Origin: Somniosus microcephalus | Taxonomy: Eukaryota | Assembly (NCBI GenBank): GCA_052327205.1 | Contig: CM126204.1 | Location: 266,290,001-266,354,000, forward strand | Reading direction: 5' to 3' | Length of the DNA stretch: 64,000 nt | In this document: positions 3,483 through 64,000 of the stretch, in pieces | Layout of the letters: every line of letters begins with the position of its first letter | How positions within the stretch are numbered: the stretch's first letter is position 1 | Made by a program: the position numbers and the translations under genes | The notes under the pieces: generated by a model | Told to the model about the DNA's origin: nothing | Database searches by the model: none | What the model saw: only the letters and a program-made list of their open reading frames with translations

Positions 3483-5396
3483 CTTCTTTTATATTTTATG
3501 CTATTGCGTCTCCAGATGATAAACCTCAGCAGAGTCACCGATCCACTGAGGGGGTTTTGTTCAAATCTCTTTGATTGCCATTGCTAATTGACCCTTTTCT
3601 CAGACTCCGCCTGTGGCGAAGAAAGATCATTTAGCCAGTTTTATTTTATTGACAGAGGCAGGGTTTACAATCCAAAGAGAGTTAAAATTTGTTGTTCGGG
3701 TCCTCCCTTAATGGCATATCGTCACCTGGTGACTGTTGAGTAACAGACAACAAATTCTGTTATTTCTAAAGCTGTAAATCGATGCAGTGTATGTGTTAAG
3801 GCTTATCAATTATTAATTTAGAGCAGTATCGTTGTATTATTTTAACTTAAAATAGTATTTGTAGTGAAGAATGTGTGCAATTGTCAGATCTTGTTGCTGT
3901 TTTAGTACCTGCCATTCCAGTGCAGACTTGGTGTAAACATGGCTGACAGGTTAATGGTTAAACATACTGTTTGCACTCCCATTAATTTGGCTGCAGCAGC
4001 ACAATAGCAACAGCTGATGAAAGTACAGGCTTATAAAGAAAGGGCGGTTAACAGTTCAAGACCTTGCTATAACATGCCCATCAAAAATATGCTGTACAAA
4101 AGGCTAGGCATACTTGATCAGTCAAAAAGTTTGAATCTGCAATCTTATTCTAAAAACGATTAAACATTATTAAAAGCAATACGGTATTTTACTTTCAAAC
4201 TAAATTACAAATTATTAATTCTCATTCCAAGTTTTTGGTTATCTTGTTGCTCTGCCCTTATTTTTAGCTATGTCTTCATCAGGTCATGTACATCATTAGT
4301 TTTCTCTTTTGTTTGCAAACAGCCAACATATCAATTATGCTGAACTGCATCATTACAACACTGGTGCAAAGTGCCATTATGATGAAAATGATTCGTAGAT
4401 ATTCTAACCCTATCCAAATGAAAAAAATGTTTACCAAGCAGCTTCTCCTGAAGATGGTACCCTGACGATGTTTTTTACTCCTTTAAACCTAGTTTTTATG
4501 AGCTTAGGACTTCAAATCAAAATCTTTTTTCTATGTCATGCCTATAGTATTGTGGTGTAGTGGGCATCATAAAAGCAACACACAATGTTTAGAAAGCATA
4601 TGGGTACTGCAGTAACAGCTTGTTGAGGGGCACAAATTCCTCCTCTGTCCCATGTTTGTTAAGGTCTCAACAGATTCTGTTATGGAGAAGGGGTGCGTAC
4701 AGCTGACCTGCATATCAACCTGATCCTTTTGTGATTCTCTATAGTTTATAATATGGTCAAATAATTATTAGTGTTCGTTGGGTTCAAGTTCCCACTTTCC
4801 AGAAAGTACATTTTTGTACTTTGAAGAAAGCCCTAAAAATTCTGAAGTGGCATGAAGTTAGTAAGTTTAAAAGGCAATGGGTCAGTAATTCCTCCCCAAA
4901 CGCGTGAGTACGGAAGGGGTACTCACGCGTCTGGCCGGAGGAAATGCCGGTTTTCAGCATGCACAGCGCATGCGCTGAAAACCGGCATTTCCTCTCCTCT
5001 AACCCAAGAGGTGAAGAGGCTAGCGCGTGCGCTGTAGGGGGCAGCGCGTGCGTCTTGGATTTCCTCTGTTTTGGGGGATTTGCGCATGTGTAAAGGCCTC
5101 CGGTCTTTACGCTTGTAAAAAGCACATGTATTTATTTTTACAGGTAAGTGGTGTTTTAGTGCAATTTAGAATTTTTTTTCCACAGGTTTATTATTTTAAA
5201 GAATCTACAATAAGGTAAGTTTAGTTTTAGACCCTTTTTATTAAAAATTTATTTTTTTCAAAAAAAAAAATTATTGTTTAAATTATTTTTTTTAGCTTAT
5301 TTATACTTAATTTAAGGATTGGGATGTTTTTTAAATTTTTATTTAAAGTTTAAATAGTGTTTTGGGCCCCCGTAGTTTTCATGAGTTTGACAGTTC

Positions 5397-13360: not shown

Positions 13361-14409
13361 GCAACAAGGCAGCAATGGGTGCCTTGATGGACCCTTCAGA
13401 GAACGCCAGGAGAGACACAGAAGCCTGCAAAGGGTCCAATGCAGAGAAACGGTCTGTGATGGCGACTGGCGCTCCAGTACAGATATTACACATTGTGCAC
13501 AAATCTTCTGGAAGAAGATGACACAGCTCTGTGAAAGCCTCTCTTCTAAAACCTCAGCCTTCTTAGACATATTACTGGCATTAGCAGTTGGCTGTACCTT
13601 TTACAGCCCTTTCCTGCTCTTGCCAGTTCTTCCTATTCCAATTCCTTGCTGGTGTAGAACCGAAAGTGGGCTCCATAGTGTGCAAGAACCTAGAATGTGG
13701 ACCGAAAATTTGAAGCAGTTCACCTTTAAATGAAGATTCCAGCTTCTCATTGCAGCTTCTCCAGCAATGCCTGTTTCTGTTGTGAGAGATAAAAATTAAT
13801 TATGTGGCACTTTCAATTAAGGGCCTCATCTTCCCAGTTAATCTGTGTACTGCACAAATTGAGTGCAATAGTGCTCCAGGTAAAAAATATTCACTCAGCA
13901 ACTTTGTTACAGTCGCAAATGGGCAGTACAGTAGGACTGCACCATACTCTGGACATTGCTGCCCTCTATCACACCCGAGGTTATGGTGGCATCTTTGGCA
14001 AATATAATTTTAGGTGACCTGGTATGTTTCTTGCTTTCTAAAGACAATTGGGATGTCAGTTGTTGGATTGCGAAATACTGAAATCCAAGTGTGAAATGAA
14101 CTAGCGTAGTGTGAAATCTACCAGTTAAGTCATGTCAGTTACAGTGAAATTCTGTTCTATGCAATAAATTTGATGGGACATGAGAGTTGTTCGCTTATAA
14201 GCAGACTTGAATAACAGGAAAACTTGTGTCCCTAACCAGAATTTGCTTGAGATTGTGTCGTGTCACACTTACATATACTGTATGTCTACTTAACTGCACT
14301 ATACACTTATGTCTAGGATTATGGAAAGACATTAACAGTAGAACATTGGATTTTCAATCAGTCATAAGCTTGAATCCTACACTTAACATGGAACCTCATC
14401 TCCTTCATT

Positions 14410-17400
14410 GGAGAACTGGACAAACACATCTCACCGGTAAAACAGGGAAAATCACACGTATGGCTAAAACTAGATAAAAATATAGGAATAGCAAGAAAAG
14501 ATGTTTACTTATGTGCGATCTACATACCTCCAATAGAATCGCCATATTTCGAAGAGGAGTTATTTGATACTCTCCACATGGAAATCAGCCATTTCCAGGC
14601 CCAAGGAAGGGTGATAATATGTGGGGACCTAAATGCAAGGACCGGTTGTGAACCTGACTTCATAGACCCACAGGGAAACAACCATGTGTTTGGCCAGACC
14701 CCTTTAGATGTCACACCAGCCATCGCAAATCGGAACAACCTTGATCGTGAAATAAATAAAAGCGGTAGGGAGGTAGTGCAACTCTGCCGAGCCTTAGGCC
14801 TGTACATAGTTAACGGTAGGTTCAGAGGGGACTCCCTAGGGAGACTCACATACTCCTCAACTCTTGGGTCTAGTGTGGTGGACTATACAATCACTGACCT
14901 GGACCCCTGCGATATCAACTCATTCACTGTCAGGCAGCAATCCCCCCTCTCAGACCATAACCAAATAAATATGTACCTTAAACTTTCTGCCCAAACTACA
15001 GACACAAAAAAGGAACCCAGTAAGCTCCATAAAATAAACCAGACATACAGATGGGCCCCAGACAGTGGAGAAAAATTCATCACAGCACTAAAGTCACCTG
15101 ATCTCACAAGTAAAATATCAAAATTTAAAGAAAACCCATACGAGATCACCAGAGATGGTGTAAACATGGCCATAGAGGATATAAATATGATCTTCCATGA
15201 GGCAGCTGTAAAAGCCGACCTTGTGAAACAGAAGAGGAAGCGTCACAAAAGACAAAATAAAAATAAGAAATGGTTTGACCACGAATGCAAAAATGCCAGA
15301 AAAGACCTGAGAAAAATATCAAACCAAAAGCATCGCCAACCAAACAATCCGGACCTACGTACTAGATACAATGAAACCCTCAAAAGATATAAACACACCA
15401 TTAGGAACAAAACACAAAACTATACCCACAAAATACTCGAAGAAATTGAAAACTCCACCAATCCAAAACAATTCTGGGAAATGTGGAATAACCTGAGTAC
15501 AACACAATTGCAAGCATTACCAATCCAAGATGGCGACATCTGGAGAACACATTTTGAAAACCTCTACAAAGACATCCCAATAAACGAAACAAACCCAAGT
15601 CAACATCAGGTCACAGAAAAACTCCACACATTAGAAGCAACAATTAAAGACAACCAAAACCCTCTAGACTCCCCAATCACATGGAAAGAACTGGCCACAA
15701 AAACAAAATCTCTCCACCTAAAGAAAGCCTGTGGCCCAGACAACATCAAAAATGAAATGCTCAAGTTCAGCAATATGGAGATGCAGGGTGCGGTACTCAA
15801 ATTATTCAACATCATATTACGTTCAGGCTGTTTTCCCGATATCTGGTGCCAAGGACTAATCTCCCCCATATATAAAAGTGGAAACAAATCAGACCCAAAT
15901 AACTACCACGGCATCTGTGTCAACAGTTGTCTAGGGAAGTTATTCTGCAGTATTCTAAATAGTAGATTACTTGATTTTCTTAACAAACATAATATCCTCA
16001 GAAAAAACCAAATAGGCTTTCTTCCAAAACACCGCACCGCCGACCATATCTATACCCTTCACACCCTCATTGAAAAACATATACACCAAACAAAAAATGG
16101 GAAAATATTCGCCTGTTTCATCGACTTCAAGAAAGCCTTTGACTCTATATGGCACGAAGGGCTCTATTATAAACTTCTTCAGTGTGGAATAGGGGGCAAA
16201 GTCTATGACCTTATTAAATCAATGTATCTGAAAAACAAATGCGGGGTCAAAATTGGAGACAAACGCACCGATTTCTTCACCCAGAGAAGAGGCGTCCGGC
16301 AGGGCTACAATTTGAGCCCGACCCTGTTCAACATATACATAAATGAATTAGCAGACATGCTGGAGCAAAGCGAGTCACCAGGTCTCCGTCTCCTGGATGG
16401 AGAAGTGAAATCCCTGTTCTATGCGGACGACCTGGTTCTGCTGTCTCCCACAGAACAGGGATTACAGCAACAACTAGACCTACTCGACAAATACTGCCAA
16501 AATTGGGCTCTAACAGTAAATCTAAAGAAAACCAACATCATGATTTTTCAAAAAAGGCCCAGATGTCAGGAAAACAAATACCAGTTTACCCTCAGTGATA
16601 CCACTATAGGACACACTATGAGCTACACCTACCTTGGTCTAACTATTACAGCATCAGGGAGCTTCAGCATAGCAGTGAATGCACTAAAAGAAAAAGCCCG
16701 AAGAGCCCTATATGCAATAAAAAGAAAATTCTACAACATCCAAATCCCAATCAAAATCTGGCTCAAAATATTTGACAGCATAATCCTGCCCATTGCACTG
16801 TACGGTAGTGAAGTATGGGGCCCGCTAAATCACCAAAGCTACACTAAATGGGAAAAACACACAATAGAAGCCCTACATGCAGAATTCTGCCGAAGCATCC
16901 TTCGCACCCAAAGAAAAACGCCAACAAATGCATGCAGAGCCGAACTAGGCAGATACCCACTGATAATAAACATCCAAAAACGAGCACTAAACTTCCTAAA
17001 TCACCTCAAATCTAGCTCCCCAGACACCCTTCATTTCAAAGCCTTTCAGACCCAAGAGCTAAACCCAGAAAAGAGTCCCCTGAGTCAGCTGCTACGGAAA
17101 CTAAGTACTCAGCCGGACCCTGACCAGCCCCAGACCAACACAGCCGTCCAAACACCAATCCGAGTGAACCAAATCATTAAACAATGCAAAGAAACCTACC
17201 TGGAACATTGGAACAAAATAACCGAAAGCCAAAGCAGATTAGAATGTTACCGGGCCCTAAAAAGAGAATATAAACTGGCAGACTACCTCACGACCATCAG
17301 AGACACAAAACAGAGACAGACCCTCACCAGGTACAGACTAAGCGACCACCAACTGGAAATTGAAAAAGGCAGATACAAGAAATCCTGGCAGCCTAGAGAG

Positions 17401-17866
17401 AATAGAATATGCGATCAATGTCTGGCCGGCGAGGTTGAAACAGAAATGCATTTCCTCCTAAAATGCAAAAAATTCAACACATCAAGAAACATATTATTCA
17501 ACAAGCTAAGCCAAACAACCCCAGATTTCAAGGAATTGGATGACCTGTCAAAATTGAGATTAGTCCTAGGAGAAGGAGACAGACCATACCTTGGGGCCAA
17601 ATATGTAACAACATGTCACAACCTGAGGACTGTTTAAAATTAAGACTGTTTAAAATTAATATTGAACGTACCAAATGAAGTACAAAGACTGTTTAAAATT
17701 AATATTGTTTAAAAGTAATATTGTATGTACCCAACAAATGTCAAATCGATTGACACCTACAGAATGTTGGAAAACTGTACCTTTTTGCTATGTAAGCTTT
17801 GGCAATATGGTTCTCTGTAAACTTTCATGCCAATAAAGCATTTGAATTGGAAAATTGGAAATTGGG
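14410..17866 (+). mobile_element. Young 5'-truncated non-LTR retrotransposon, RTEX-like clade
   Basis: Open frame from ~14410 to 17637. The 3' UTR has AATAAA followed by a GAATTG/GAAATTG repeat tail. ATTGG microhomology at both junctions. Confidence 0.85.
14578..17637 (+). CDS. LINE ORF2: partial AP-endonuclease, reverse transcriptase and C-terminal CCHC zinc knuckle
   Basis: GDLNART, VDY, SDH (endonuclease); FIDFKKAFDS, GVRQG.LSP.LF, YADD, YLG (RT); CDQC..ETEMHFLLKC. The frame stays open upstream to ~14410 but the endonuclease N-terminus is missing. Confidence 0.9.
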   Translation: MEISHFQAQGRVIICGDLNARTGCEPDFIDPQGNNHVFGQTPLDVTPAIANRNNLDREINKSGREVVQLCRALGLYIVNGRFRGDSLGRLTYSSTLGSSVVDYTITDLDPCDINSFTVRQQSPLSDHNQINMYLKLSAQTTDTKKEPSKLHKINQTYRWAPDSGEKFITALKSPDLTSKISKFKENPYEITRDGVNMAIEDINMIFHEAAVKADLVKQKRKRHKRQNKNKKWFDHECKNARKDLRKISNQKHRQPNNPDLRTRYNETLKRYKHTIRNKTQNYTHKILEEIENSTNPKQFWEMWNNLSTTQLQALPIQDGDIWRTHFENLYKDIPINETNPSQHQVTEKLHTLEATIKDNQNPLDSPITWKELATKTKSLHLKKACGPDNIKNEMLKFSNMEMQGAVLKLFNIILRSGCFPDIWCQGLISPIYKSGNKSDPNNYHGICVNSCLGKLFCSILNSRLLDFLNKHNILRKNQIGFLPKHRTADHIYTLHTLIEKHIHQTKNGKIFACFIDFKKAFDSIWHEGLYYKLLQCGIGGKVYDLIKSMYLKNKCGVKIGDKRTDFFTQRRGVRQGYNLSPTLFNIYINELADMLEQSESPGLRLLDGEVKSLFYADDLVLLSPTEQGLQQQLDLLDKYCQNWALTVNLKKTNIMIFQKRPRCQENKYQFTLSDTTIGHTMSYTYLGLTITASGSFSIAVNALKEKARRALYAIKRKFYNIQIPIKIWLKIFDSIILPIALYGSEVWGPLNHQSYTKWEKHTIEALHAEFCRSILRTQRKTPTNACRAELGRYPLIINIQKRALNFLNHLKSSSPDTLHFKAFQTQELNPEKSPLSQLLRKLSTQPDPDQPQTNTAVQTPIRVNQIIKQCKETYLEHWNKITESQSRLECYRALKREYKLADYLTTIRDTKQRQTLTRYRLSDHQLEIEKGRYKKSWQPRENRICDQCLAGEVETEMHFLLKCKKFNTSRNILFNKLSQTTPDFKELDDLSKLRLVLGEGDRPYLGAKYVTTCHNLRTV

Positions 17867-22335: not shown

Positions 22336-22583
22336 CATAAAAACAGAAAATGCTGGAAATACTCAGCAGGTCAGGCAGCATCTGCGGAGAGAGAAACAGA
22401 GTTAACATCGACCTGAAACGTTAACTCTGTTTCTCGATGACCTGAAACGTTAACTCTGTTTCTCGCTGACCTGAAACGTTTACTCTATTTCTCTCTCCAC
22501 AGATGCTGCCTGACCTGCTGAGTATTTCCAGCATTTTCTGTTTCTATTTCAGATTTCCAGCATCCGCAGTATTTTGCTTTTGT
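22336..22583. mobile_element. Penelope-derived fold-back insertion with 13-bp TSD
   Basis: ACTTCCTATTTAA at 22323-22335 and 22584-22596. Inverted pseudo-LTR arms with a triplicated GACCTGAAACGTTAACTCTGTTTCTC at the junction. Confidence 0.85.
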
Positions 22584-43935: not shown

Positions 43936-44379
43936 TGTTTCCTCCCCCTTCCTCACTTCTGGCTACTAGATCATTCTCTCGGATCATTAGATAAGTCTGA
44001 TGGATGGCCATTTAGCAAGCAATGTATAAAAACCATCTATCTATATATGTATATTTGAGATACCCTCAGTGCCAACATCTCTCTGCTGTCACCCATCCCT
44101 TCAAGTTTTGTCCAGTAACTAACTCCAGCCTGCCAAAGAAAGGAAATCACAGTTTACCAAGGGTGTTATATATGCACCGAATTTGGCGAGATTTTAGTCA
44201 TTGTGTGCTAAAGGATTTTTCCACATTGTCATGTTTCAACCTAATTGAGATTCAGGAGTTAATTCTGTTTAATAGATGTAAAATTAAAAAGATGATACCA
44301 TAGAATATATTTCTGAACACAACCAGAAACTTTTTTTCTGTCAGAGAGGGGAAAATACCAGGGTAGTCATGTCTCAGTG

Positions 44380-44556
44380 TTATTGTGAAACAAAGTCTAA
44401 GTTAATATTCCAGTATTCTTCTGAATTGCTTACCATGGAGACCGCTTAACAGAAACACCTCATTCTGGTCCCAATGGGTTGTTCCTGTTAAGAGGTCCCT
44501 ACTGTGACCAGTTCGAGGAATATTAGAATACTAACTCAGACTTTGTTTCACAATAA
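44380..44556. repeat. Old hairpin repeat, with a second half-copy at 45073-45172
   Basis: TTATTGTGAAACAAAGTCTAAGTTAATATTC pairs with GAATACTAACTCAGACTTTGTTTCACAATAA. Confidence 0.75.
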
Positions 44557-44806
44557 AAATGGGATTGTTTGTGTTCAGGATTGCTTGCTCAGTTTAAATC
44601 CCCATGCACCTTACAGAATGTGATTTAAAAGCTGGATAATGGATTGCTGTTTTATCCCATTCCTTCTACTCCAGCGTCGGAGGCCAATCTTTTAGCCACT
44701 GAAATCATTATTTCAGAATCAGTTTGCTTGGCTACTCCTCTCCCCATCTTAACAATGCTCCTACAAGCATATCTCTTCACCCTCAGTCTGCCACCTTAAA
44801 CTCCTT

Positions 44807-44993
44807 GGAGTAGATTTTGACTTTGCGTAATAATGTAAAATGGGCGATAGTGAGTCGGCAGTCCGTTTTACGTTACTCCCCATTTTTATTACTGTTGACT
44901 TTAACGGAAATAAAAATCGGGAGTGATGTAATACGGACTGCCGATTCGCTATCATCCGCCTTACCCTATCGCACAAAGTCAAAATCTACCTCC
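44807..44993. mobile_element. Palindromic MITE
   Basis: TIRs GTAGATTTTGACTTTG / CAAAGTCAAAATCTAC with inner arms GATAGTGAGTCGGCAGTCCGT / ACGGACTGCCGATTCGCTATC. Confidence 0.85.
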
Positions 44994-58390: not shown

Positions 58391-60010
58391 CAAGATCACA
58401 AAATAGATACAGAAGAGAAAGGGCATTTGATCCATCTCAGCTCATCCATCCAGAAAGACCCTCTCATTCTCCCCTGTTATAGCATCCAACTTAAATGCTT
58501 CTATGGTTTTCAAACCCATGACCCTACCCCAAAATCCATTCCATTTGTGAAAAATCTTCCCTTTTATTAGTTTTGAACCTGTCTCCCCTTGTCCTACTGT
58601 CATGGTTCAGTTTGAAGTGTGCTCTGAATGTATCTATTCTATCCCATTAATTATCTTATATGCCTGTATGAAATCATGTCTCAAGTACCTCCTCTGAAAA
58701 GCTGAAGCTTTTTTCATATGTCTGACAGCACGAGTCAGTTGCAAGCTAGTCTTTTAATTTTTGCCAAGGCACAAATGTCTCCGATAGCAAAATACTGCAG
58801 ATGCTGGAAATCCGAAATAACAACAGAAAATGCTGGAAAAACTCAGCAGGCCAGGCAACATCCGTGGAGAGAAATTAAAAGTCGACGTTTCGGGTTGAAA
58901 CCCTTTTTCAAAACTGGAAAGGAAATAAAATAGATCGAAGGCAGGGCTGCGATAGAACAAAAGAGAAGTAAAGAGACATTAAGAGGTATTCAAAACCAGA
59001 CGAGATGGTAATAGGACAGAGGAGACAAAGACGGCTCAGATTAGGTGTGACGTGTACTGGCAGGATGAGAAACAGCTGCCATGTGGGAAAGAGAAAAAAA
59101 AGGAAAGGGGGGGGGAAAGGGAAGACCCAAAACAAAGGGGTGGAAAAGAAATATATAAGTAAAAATATCGAGTTCAACAATTTCAGATCATAACCTCGGC
59201 CCCTATTACATTTTTACTTATATATTTCTTTTCCACCCCTTTGTTTTGGGTCTTCCCTTTCCCCCCCCCTTTCCTTTTTTTTCTCTTTCCCACATGGCAG
59301 CTGTTTCTCATCCTGCCAGTGCACTTCACACCTAATCTGAGCTGTCTTTGTCTCCTCTGTCCTATTACCATCTCGTCTGGTTTTGAATACCTCTTAATGT
59401 CTCGTCACTTCTCTTTTGTTCTATCGCAGCCCTGCCTTCAATCTATTTTATTTCCTTTCCAGTTTTGAAAAAGGGTTTCAACCCGAAACGTCGACTTTTA
59501 ATTTCTCTCCACGGATGTTGCCTGGCCTGCTGAGTTTTTCCAGCATTTTCTGTTGTTATTTCACAAATGTCTCCCTTGTGTCTGAGTGGCCAGAACTGGA
59601 CACAGTACTCGAGGTGGGAGCTGACCAGATCACTATACAGTTGCCACATGATTTCCTCTAACTTGCATTCGAATGTTTTGGCCATTTCCTTTGTTAATTG
59701 CTGCTCCACAGTGGTTATATATGTCCAGCATCAAATCCACTGAAACTCCTAGATCTCTTTTAACTTCATCCTTACCTATGTTGGCTCCCTTCATGGAACA
59801 CCTTTGTCATCTTTGTGTTGTTCCTAAGTGCAGCAGTTTAAACTGTTCATATTCTGGCCACTTACAAATTTTGTCTAAGTCACTTTATATTTCCTGAGCT
59901 GCCTCCTCAGAATCAAATGACCCTCTTAGTCTGGTATCGTCTTCCACCAATATCTATTGAGTTTCTGAACCCAGGTCATTGATGTAAATCAGAAACAGTA
60001 GGGTTTCCAA
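58390..60010 (-). mobile_element. Old CR1 3' fragment, interrupted by the Penelope fold-back
   Basis: Minus-strand LYSDLVSSHLEYCVQFWPLRHKGDI ends exactly at the insertion; CR1 tail motifs at 58400-58700. Confidence 0.8.
58783..59561. mobile_element. Penelope-derived long fold-back insertion with 13-bp TSD
   Basis: CACAAATGTCTCC at 58770-58782 and 59562-59574. Inverted arms 58814-59166 and 59210-59562. Confidence 0.9.
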
Positions 60011-62126: not shown

Positions 62127-62200
62127 AGGGATTGGGGGAAAGACTTGTTAATAACAAGAAACTTGTAATATTAAAACTTGTTATGTATTGAAGGCATGTA

Positions 62201-63716
62201 GGGCCAGAAATTCCAGAACGGGGCTTGCAGCGCGTGCAAGCCCCGTATTTGCACTTACCCCGCGCTCCTGCCGATCAGTTTCTGGGACGCCTGAACTTGG
62301 AGAAATAGAAAGCACATTCCCGGGCAGCGTATGACGTCACGCCGCCCAGGAGTGCAGCCAGCGCGGACCCAGGAGCGTGCAGTGTAAGTGAGACACGCCC
62401 CTTGAGGTCTCAGTTTCACTGGACACGCCCCCAATGTTTCTGTCAAGCTGCTTTGCTTTTTTACATGCAAAGCAGCAGTTTAAATAGGTTTTTGGAAGTT
62501 TTTTGAAGATTTTGGTAACTTTTATAAACTTTTTTAAATGTTTACATTATTTTGAGTAATCTGAAGTAGTTTTAAAGAGAATTAAAGCAATTTAAAAACT
62601 TTTAAAAGCCCTAAAAGAATTTTTTAAATTCCATTTATTTATTTAGCAATGTCGTCGTCATACGTGTCTTCACACTGTTCCCTTTGGGGAACTGTATGAA
62701 GTGGTGGAAGGATTTATGGCCGTGATTAACGCTCATTCCGTGACCGTAACCATCTTTGAACCAGCCATTAGGGCGGTTAGTCCTATGGCGGGAGGGTTTT
62801 ACGGGCTCCCACAAGCTATACGAGGAGGGGGGGCCACCCACACCCACGGACGCAAATATCCCACTGGATGTCAACCCAGAATTTAGAGCCGGAGCTCCGA
62901 CTCCACTTGCCGGGACTGTCTGGAGCGGGGTTCGAAACCCTACCCTGATCTGGCCCAGCGGCGGGGATCCTACCGCTATGACAAAGGCCCAATCCGATTA
63001 GCAACGTGAAATGGCAGCATAGGGCTCCAGTCACGGGGAGGGAAAAGGCGCAGGAAACGTATGGGTGTCACCTTTTGTGCGGAGTGGGCCTTTTGCGTAG
63101 CAGTAAGCATCCCCGCCGCTGGGCCAGAAGGAGTAGGGTTTTGAACCCCACTCCAGACAGTCCCGGCAAGTGGAGTCGGAGCTCCAACTTTAAATTCTGG
63201 GTGGACATCCAGCGGGATACTTGTGTCCGTGGGTGTTGGTGGCCCCCCCCCCCCTCAGATGGGTTGTGGGAGCCCGTAAAACCCTCCCGCCATAGGACTA
63301 ACCACCCTAATGGCTGGTTCAAAGATGGTTACGGTCACGGAATGAGCGTTAATCACGGCCATAAATCCTTCCACCACTTCATACAGTTCCCCAAAGGGAA
63401 CAGTGTGAGGATACGTCCGATGATGACCTCTTGCGCAATGCACCTCCTTGGACCCTCAGTCGCAGATGCGAGGGGGCAAGTCGTGCAAGTGTTAAATTTT
63501 TTATTTTATTGACATGTAAAATGTTGGCCCAATAATTCCCTTCCAAATGCGCTAGTACGGTCGGGGTACTTACGCATCTGGCCGGATGAAATGCCGGTTT
63601 TCAGCATGCACAGTGCATGTGGGGAAAACCGGCATTTCCTGTCCTCTGAACGAAGGGGTTCAGAGGCAGAACGCGTGCGACTGCACATGCAGCGCGTGCG
63701 CAGTATAATTTGCCGC
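62201..63716. mobile_element. GC-rich multi-hairpin element(s) of the 4879-8460 family enclosing a long fold-back
   Basis: 62201-62270 matches the reverse complement of 8395-8460, and 63526-63700 matches 4879-5052. Inverted arms lie at ~62646-62968 and ~63109-63434. Confidence 0.7.
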
Positions 63717-64000
63717 TTTCATTAATGCTTTCAGTGAGGTCCAGTCATTACAACTTACACATGAAAAAAGCATGGGTACAGTTGCTACAGAGGCTGCGGA
63801 GGAAGATATTTCTTATCGTGGAGCTTCTGAAAGTATGTATGTCTGTATATATTCCTTTGCGTGTTATGTATATATTCCTTTACTTATGTGTATGAATGTA
63901 TTATTTAATTATGACTTTCAGAGAAAGTAACTTATTGGAAAATCATAATTAAAAACATACATTCATAGTAAAGGAATATAAAACATACATACATATACGT

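Follow-up and report, generated by a model that had tools for sequence, protein, structure and literature searches.

The window, by which we mean the entire 64,000-nucleotide stretch analyzed here, carries NR5A-type zinc-finger and hinge exons at ~33.9, 35.0, and 40.1 kb on the plus strand, and a ligand-binding-domain exon on the same strand was located ~216 kb past the window end. Because NR5A exons flank it on both sides and on one strand, the composite element described below is intronic. The earlier note on this DNA had placed the site in an intron of nr5a2; the exons bear out an NR5A intron, and the paralogue name is one that we presume from sequence likeness. The NR5A gene region also contains a 1,087-amino-acid open frame (14374 to 17634) that probably belongs to a young LINE.

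The feature of interest is a long inverted repeat, reported in the earlier note, with a predicted fold far above chance (minimum free energy of -688.7 kcal/mol; z = -49 versus 20 shuffles). Its arms are ~345 bp each and reach further inward than first described, to 62995 and 63081, leaving a spacer of 85 bp rather than ~140 bp. The counts made by eye in that note agree well with ours: the segment at 62671 to 62814, read as having about one difference, mismatches its partner at 1 of 144 positions (62774), and the inner part of the arm, read as having ~20, is mismatched at ~21 of 178 sites (mean over 30 near-identical copies). Since 783 bp of the fold-back recur at 99 to 100% identity in 40 of 40 scored loci, the window locus included, on many contigs, an assembly artifact is ruled out. 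Coordinates are collected in Table 1.

Table 1. Features of the composite element and its fold-back, in window positions
Feature	Position	Strand	Remark
Left copy of Harbinger 3-bp target site duplication, GTA	62198..62200	.	Right copy directly after 64464, outside the window
Nonautonomous PIF/Harbinger composite, 2,264 bp	62201..64000, on to window-equivalent 64464	+	16-bp terminal inverted repeats, left 62201-62216
Putative promoter and first exon of Harbinger Myb-like gene	62332..62389	+	Putative function, judged from sequence
CRE-like TGACGTCA	62332-62339	+	Part of putative Myb-like gene promoter
Donor-like GTAAGT	62384-62389	+	Putative Myb-like gene first exon; no spliced reads
Outer copy, left SINE 11-bp target duplication	62642..62652	.	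Duplicates putative splice acceptor of Myb gene
Left arm, complete SINE, second insertion	62653..62995	-	Head at 62995, B box 62928-62938, tail hairpin and (GAC)n outermost
Conversion donor	62686..62791 minimum, 62670-62814 maximum	.	Left arm
Inner copy, left SINE target duplication	62997..63007	.	
Remnant of Myb/SANT-like gene	63011..63069	+	Start ATG fused to basic C-terminal tail
5' copy, right SINE 11-bp target duplication	63070..63080	.	
Right arm, complete SINE, first insertion	63081..63425	+	At 3' end of Myb gene
Conversion recipient, left-arm alleles	63287..63392 minimum, 63264-63408 maximum	.	Right arm
3' copy, right SINE target duplication	63426..63436	.	
Inverted copy of Harbinger right end	63526..63832	-	72% like own right end; occupies place of parent's transposase
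AT-rich imperfect palindrome	63833..64000 (to 64026)	.	Parent right-side sequence, both orientations

Further fold-backs occur in the window at 22337 to 22547, 44372 to 44564, and 44810 to 44989. A second, tighter one at 58814 to 59562 has 353-bp arms that are 98% complementary and a 43-bp loop; it is built from a common dispersed repeat that is single-armed at other loci, and it yields spurious subthreshold miRNA matches. The ends of this second fold-back may be akin to shark Penelope-like elements.

The cassette lies within a mobile element, as had been claimed, and that element is a 2,264-bp nonautonomous PIF/Harbinger with terminal inverted repeats (TIRs) and a target site duplication (TSD). 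Its left boundary at 62201 is sharp, with flanking sequence common to 30 of 30 retrieved copies up to that point. Ten longer stretches gave element lengths of 2,263 to 2,270 bp; the 16-bp TIR is perfect in all 10 full elements, and the 3-bp TSD is perfect in 8 and has one mismatch in the other 2. The right 940 bp (63526 to window-equivalent 64464) is made up of two Harbinger right ends, head to head and 72% alike, resembling a separate palindromic MITE. A related Harbinger end was seen at 4883 to 5052.

Both arms are complete copies of a SINE that also exists free of the Harbinger. Varied sequence abuts the outer end of the arm at 62651 in RNA reads and DNA contigs alike, and 434 exact matches of the arm end have a nonhost flank. 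All 30 free loci that we retrieved stand alone between unrelated flanks, and most are ~343 bp with identical end points; TSDs of ~10 to 12 bp, nearly all beginning with AC, were found in 26 of the 30, the remaining 4 being truncated or unparsed and two locus pairs being mutual duplicates. The consensus of 23 full copies has an acceptor-stem-like pairing, a tail hairpin followed by (GAC)n, and A- and B-box motifs, as judged against the box consensus. The B-box-like word noted previously near 62929 proved to be the genuine B box of the SINE, read on the opposite strand. The A box of the left-arm SINE has two changes, and the A box (~63093 to 63103) and B box (~63137 to 63147) of the right-arm SINE are both changed. 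The 23 full-length free copies lie 1.7 to 5.1% from their own consensus, and 5'-truncated copies exist.

The TSDs of the free loci (L122 to L151) are narrow in length (~10 to 12 bp), nearly always start with AC(C/T), and fuse with the (GAC)n tail, a pattern that may reflect the target preference of a LINE endonuclease. Older, diverged relatives of the SINE (L091:400-753 at 77%, L174, L190, and L191) have a longer pretail segment and (GAA)-type or mixed tails. The SINE bears some resemblance to RTE types and may be kin to them. The SINE head had no tRNA match in Rfam, relaxed ARAGORN was uninformative, and a comparison with the heads of another abundant SINE at two loci gave weak homology (E ~0.009). 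The partner LINE was sought with three pattern searches and by scanning 189 sequences, all of which returned SINE variants only. Zenon, which has a poly-A tail according to the description in PMC13343379, is an unlikely partner.

Other identities for the arms were considered and set aside. They matched no RNA family at the gathering score in Rfam. A protein-coding origin was rejected, with no Pfam match at any curated cutoff in 10 frames and two empty protein searches; matches to Sel1 repeats, which run across the joint of the Myb deletion and the head of the SINE, were discounted as a chimera artifact. An origin of the arms from a duplicated part of the Myb gene was abandoned when free, TSD-flanked copies came to light.

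The earlier note took the arms for a duplication of an unrecognized sequence. Our data point instead to two separate insertions of one SINE family, each arm being flanked by its own 11-bp direct repeat and both empty sites being present in the genome. For the left SINE, the exact search pattern, which was one base off, had 0 matches, and at three or fewer mismatches there were 231, versus 1 for the control; the best 30 of the 231 were mostly Harbingers with one SINE, and among 20 one-SINE loci that were extended, the complete ones measured ~3.0 to 3.55 kb. For the right SINE, the empty site had 230 matches (control, 0) in SINE-free Harbingers with a full-domain Myb gene and a transposase. An empty site for insertion of the entire fold-back as a unit, with a GCAATG duplication, was absent, and that model was rejected. 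The left arm differs from the free-SINE consensus at 13 of 343 positions, from the older right arm at 30, and from the SINE of the one-SINE parent at 20, and it carries none of the eight diagnostic alleles of the parent's SINE. Because it is nearer to free SINEs and lacks those alleles, the left arm was not copied from its neighbor. With two independent insertions, the 9 to 10% divergence between the arms is simply the starting state of the pair. The SINEs stand head to head, such that Pol III would transcribe outward from each, and a hairpin RNA would therefore require read-through.

The one-SINE and SINE-free forms also reveal the genes of the parent. Open transposase frames of 383 to 398 amino acids were detected in 3 of 20 one-SINE copies, and the two frames scanned match DDE_Tnp_4 (PF13359; E values of 7e-42 and 8.5e-40). 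A full Myb/SANT-like domain is encoded in SINE-free copies (tblastn E ~1e-23 to the Myb-like proteins P0019 and P0058), whereas one-SINE copies have only half of the Myb domain (PF13873, E = 0.17) and lack ~1.36 kb of the Myb gene that the SINE-free form has. The Myb remnant in the spacer was shaped by this ~1.36-kb deletion and a further 164-bp deletion; in an older form of the composite, the spacer has an additional 164 bp that would encode the beginning of a Myb/SANT-like protein. Queried with the 171-bp older spacer, a DNA search gave 0 matches; a protein search gave 3,778 candidates. In the one-SINE Harbingers L101, L106, and L110, the transposase frames are open and the Myb gene is broken. 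Because one-SINE Harbingers keep transposase frames despite a broken Myb gene, it is likely that the family borrowed the Myb protein in trans.

The near-perfect core is likely due to conversion between the arms. The right arm of young copies carries the left-arm allele throughout an unbroken run of 11 diagnostic sites (62686 to 62791 in left-arm coordinates), and beyond 62670 to 62814 it retains right-arm alleles. Five of the 11 tract alleles are private to the left arm and are missing from the free-SINE and one-SINE-parent consensus sequences, which identifies the left arm as the donor. All 30 best matches had the tract and none of 28 older right arms did; the cores of those older arms are mismatched at 7 to 25 of 144 sites. 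Since those 30 copies were best matches, we drew a second sample of 40 copies from contig 1, chosen by the spacer junction alone. After exclusion of one rearranged copy, all 39 scorable copies of this short-spacer subfamily carried the tract, with 1 to 6 core mismatches per copy and a median divergence of 1.0% from the consensus.

None of 44 private changes at arm-identical sites was shared with the partner arm. Given this result and the contrast between the 39 converted young copies and the 28 older arms, the core likely derives from one founder conversion, left to right and 106 to 145 bp long, that has been decaying ever since. The earlier note had offered gene conversion between the arms or selection for a perfect double-stranded RNA (dsRNA), and had suggested examining whether the same 140-bp core is homogenized in all copies. 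The 11-site tract upholds conversion; maintenance is contradicted, with the core missing from older subfamilies and copies of the young one decaying independently. A lower substitution rate in the core than in the flanks was left out of the argument, the 30 copies having been picked for best match to the cassette. Conversion was not a unique type of event, since two older copies hold a four-site tract in the reverse (right-to-left) direction. One further copy, L205:601-1513, turns over to the opposite strand where the inner ends of the arms lie and is then truncated, a structure that would be expected from recombination between the arms.

The forms differ greatly in abundance. Exact junction matches numbered 2,954 for the short-spacer converted subfamily and 2,336 for long-spacer forms, the latter including some copies without the left arm; in a long-spacer sample of 30, the left arm was present in all 30 and a scorable right arm in 28. 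By exact 21- to 22-mers, two-SINE forms thus number ~5,000, as against ~230 each for forms with one SINE or none. The converted subfamily is the youngest, at a median distance of 1.0% from the consensus. Because two-SINE forms dominate and the converted subfamily is youngest, the hairpin may have benefited spread. One hypothesis is that it aided movement of the DNA element, through pairing during gap repair or by drawing the ends together, and so raised the copy number from ~230 to ~5,000 once the second SINE was in place. We consider this unlikely: the same lineage also became shorter, by ~1.3 kb or more, and acquired a doubled right end, both of them simpler causes with which any benefit of the hairpin is confounded, and the copy number comparison covers no one-SINE form with a doubled end.

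A second set of alternatives assigns a function to the RNA. We examined two RNA-seq runs of 101-nucleotide reads, too long for small RNAs, from a species carrying the repeat. Coverage of 62190 to 63105 was low: 881 of 16.7 million and 1,959 of 14.4 million reads matched, on both strands, pooled over thousands of copies. A plus-strand rise at 62314 to 62437 in one run may mark activity of the Harbinger promoter in certain copies. Neither run contained reads that splice the putative donor at 62384 to the left arm. An RNA peak at the SINE tail is due in part to a single expressed locus, where 109 reads of one run span the junction of a 75-bp, 5'-truncated SINE copy (L121:1429-1503). A diverged read end had no genomic match. 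A-to-I editing, which the earlier note had named as something to look for, showed no clear excess: the ratio of A>G plus T>C to G>A plus C>T sites was 40:27 and 52:43 in RNA versus 20:16 in DNA contigs, at a 90% filter that would drop hyperedited reads.

If the pair had the origin that we describe and now served as a source of hairpin RNA, the dsRNA from thousands of intronic copies would be diced or edited and would repress the free SINE family, perhaps together with its LINE, with the converted core being more potent. The extreme stability of the RNA fold, the presence of copies in transcribed introns with RNA on both strands, and the older appearance of free SINEs (n = 23) relative to the converted subfamily are all consistent with this proposal. 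We nevertheless judge it very unlikely. Neither a spliced nor a dominant transcript was found in the two runs, the editing excess is not clear (with hyperedited reads lost at the filter), the core is not maintained, and the age gap may come from mixed SINE subfamilies. The bolder version, in which a DNA transposon mass-produced a SINE killer, ~5,000 head-to-head pairs, the newest with a conversion-polished 140-bp duplex, whose read-through dsRNA silences free SINEs (perhaps the LINE as well) genome-wide, is distinctly improbable for us; were it true, one class of mobile element would have shut down another. The earlier note suggested, by analogy with Mu killer or the hpRNAs, that this could be a mobile hairpin-RNA cassette silencing a cognate autonomous element or virus. 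Such a cassette would be an inverted duplication of part of its target and would silence it in trans. Placement within a derived transposon, with a promoter-like region upstream, would suit this idea. However, the analogy fails because the arms hold no transposon-gene sequence: they match no transposase or Myb coding sequence, and the arm is absent from SINE-free copies of autonomous type. Each arm has a separate TSD, and the family went on expanding after the hairpin had formed, such that we regard this origin as extremely improbable. Overall, a silencing role for the hairpin appears unlikely.

We are therefore highly confident that the fold-back consists of two separately inserted, head-to-head SINEs within a nonautonomous PIF/Harbinger, with a core that likely stems from a single left-to-right conversion in the subfamily founder. 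At the start of its history would stand an autonomous Harbinger in which a Myb-like gene and a DDE transposase gene converge, both observed in surviving copies. The ~1.36-kb Myb deletion and the SINE insertion at the Myb 3' end, also observed, could have come in either order. The second SINE, in antisense orientation, went into the putative acceptor that precedes the Myb ATG, as its empty site and TSD show. The transposase region would then have been lost and a doubled right end put in its place, a structure seen directly and reached by a route that we can only surmise. The 164-bp spacer deletion and the 106- to 145-bp conversion would complete the converted form; the tract and its direction are observed, and template switching or fold-back repair is the likely means. 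Spread would have proceeded in trans, through the transposase and Myb protein of a related element. The SINE pair, with changes in the Pol III boxes of each arm, would be passive cargo, and dsRNA, if any, a by-product of read-through in host pre-mRNA.

The family offers a natural record of nesting. Each form, whether SINE-free, one-SINE, two-SINE, or converted, is still present, and a conversion between inverted repeats can thus be followed directly in its order, direction, and length. The record also carries a caution, in that the perfect duplex core of a young repeat need not imply selection. What is unusual is the persistence of thousands of inverted SINE pairs that are 85 bp apart and 90 to 99% identical, a layout underrepresented among human Alus, and the family could be used to examine how inverted-repeat instability and intronic dsRNA are dealt with in a genome that, judged by its repeat types, is cartilaginous-fish-like.

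Several known systems resemble parts of this structure. The TIRs, the 3-bp TSD, and a parent with a DDE transposase and a Myb/SANT-like gene are features of PIF/Harbinger elements as described in PMC9179366, although the perfect TIR of 16 bp is shorter than the usual 25 to 50 bp given there. The element departs from the usual nonautonomous PIF/Harbinger in its length of 2.26 kb, its nested SINEs, and the inverted right end in its interior. In its A and B boxes within a putatively tRNA-like head, its body, short-repeat tail, and TSDs, the SINE resembles the tRNA-headed SINE2 class, including bipartite RTE/Vingi types, as these are described in PMC5786205, PMC3747384, and PMC7245038; the comparison was made by described features. 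According to the account in 10.1101/2020.01.09.900282, the Muk transcript silences MuDR and has full identity with a portion of mudrA and its TIR. Mu killer shares with our element a long inverted repeat in a transposon derivative, but the arms here are foreign SINEs without transposon-gene sequence.

Inverted Alu pairs are likewise close, opposed SINEs of one family that can pair in read-through RNA or single-stranded DNA, and closely spaced pairs are reported in PMC3215922 to be underrepresented in human DNA. Each of those pairs arose by chance, whereas in the present family a DNA transposon multiplied one pair into thousands of copies. In our literature search, no account emerged of a DNA transposon amplifying an inverted SINE pair, and the family may already be catalogued in Repbase or Dfam. 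The closest parallel is MER6/MER6A, described in PMC6887750 as a Mariner MITE carrying a V-SINE: in both cases, a SINE within a DNA transposon was multiplied as cargo of a nonautonomous derivative. The present carrier differs in being a young PIF/Harbinger, in holding two complete inverted SINEs, and in having its intermediates still in the genome; it is a MER6-like composite that multiplies inverted SINE pairs.
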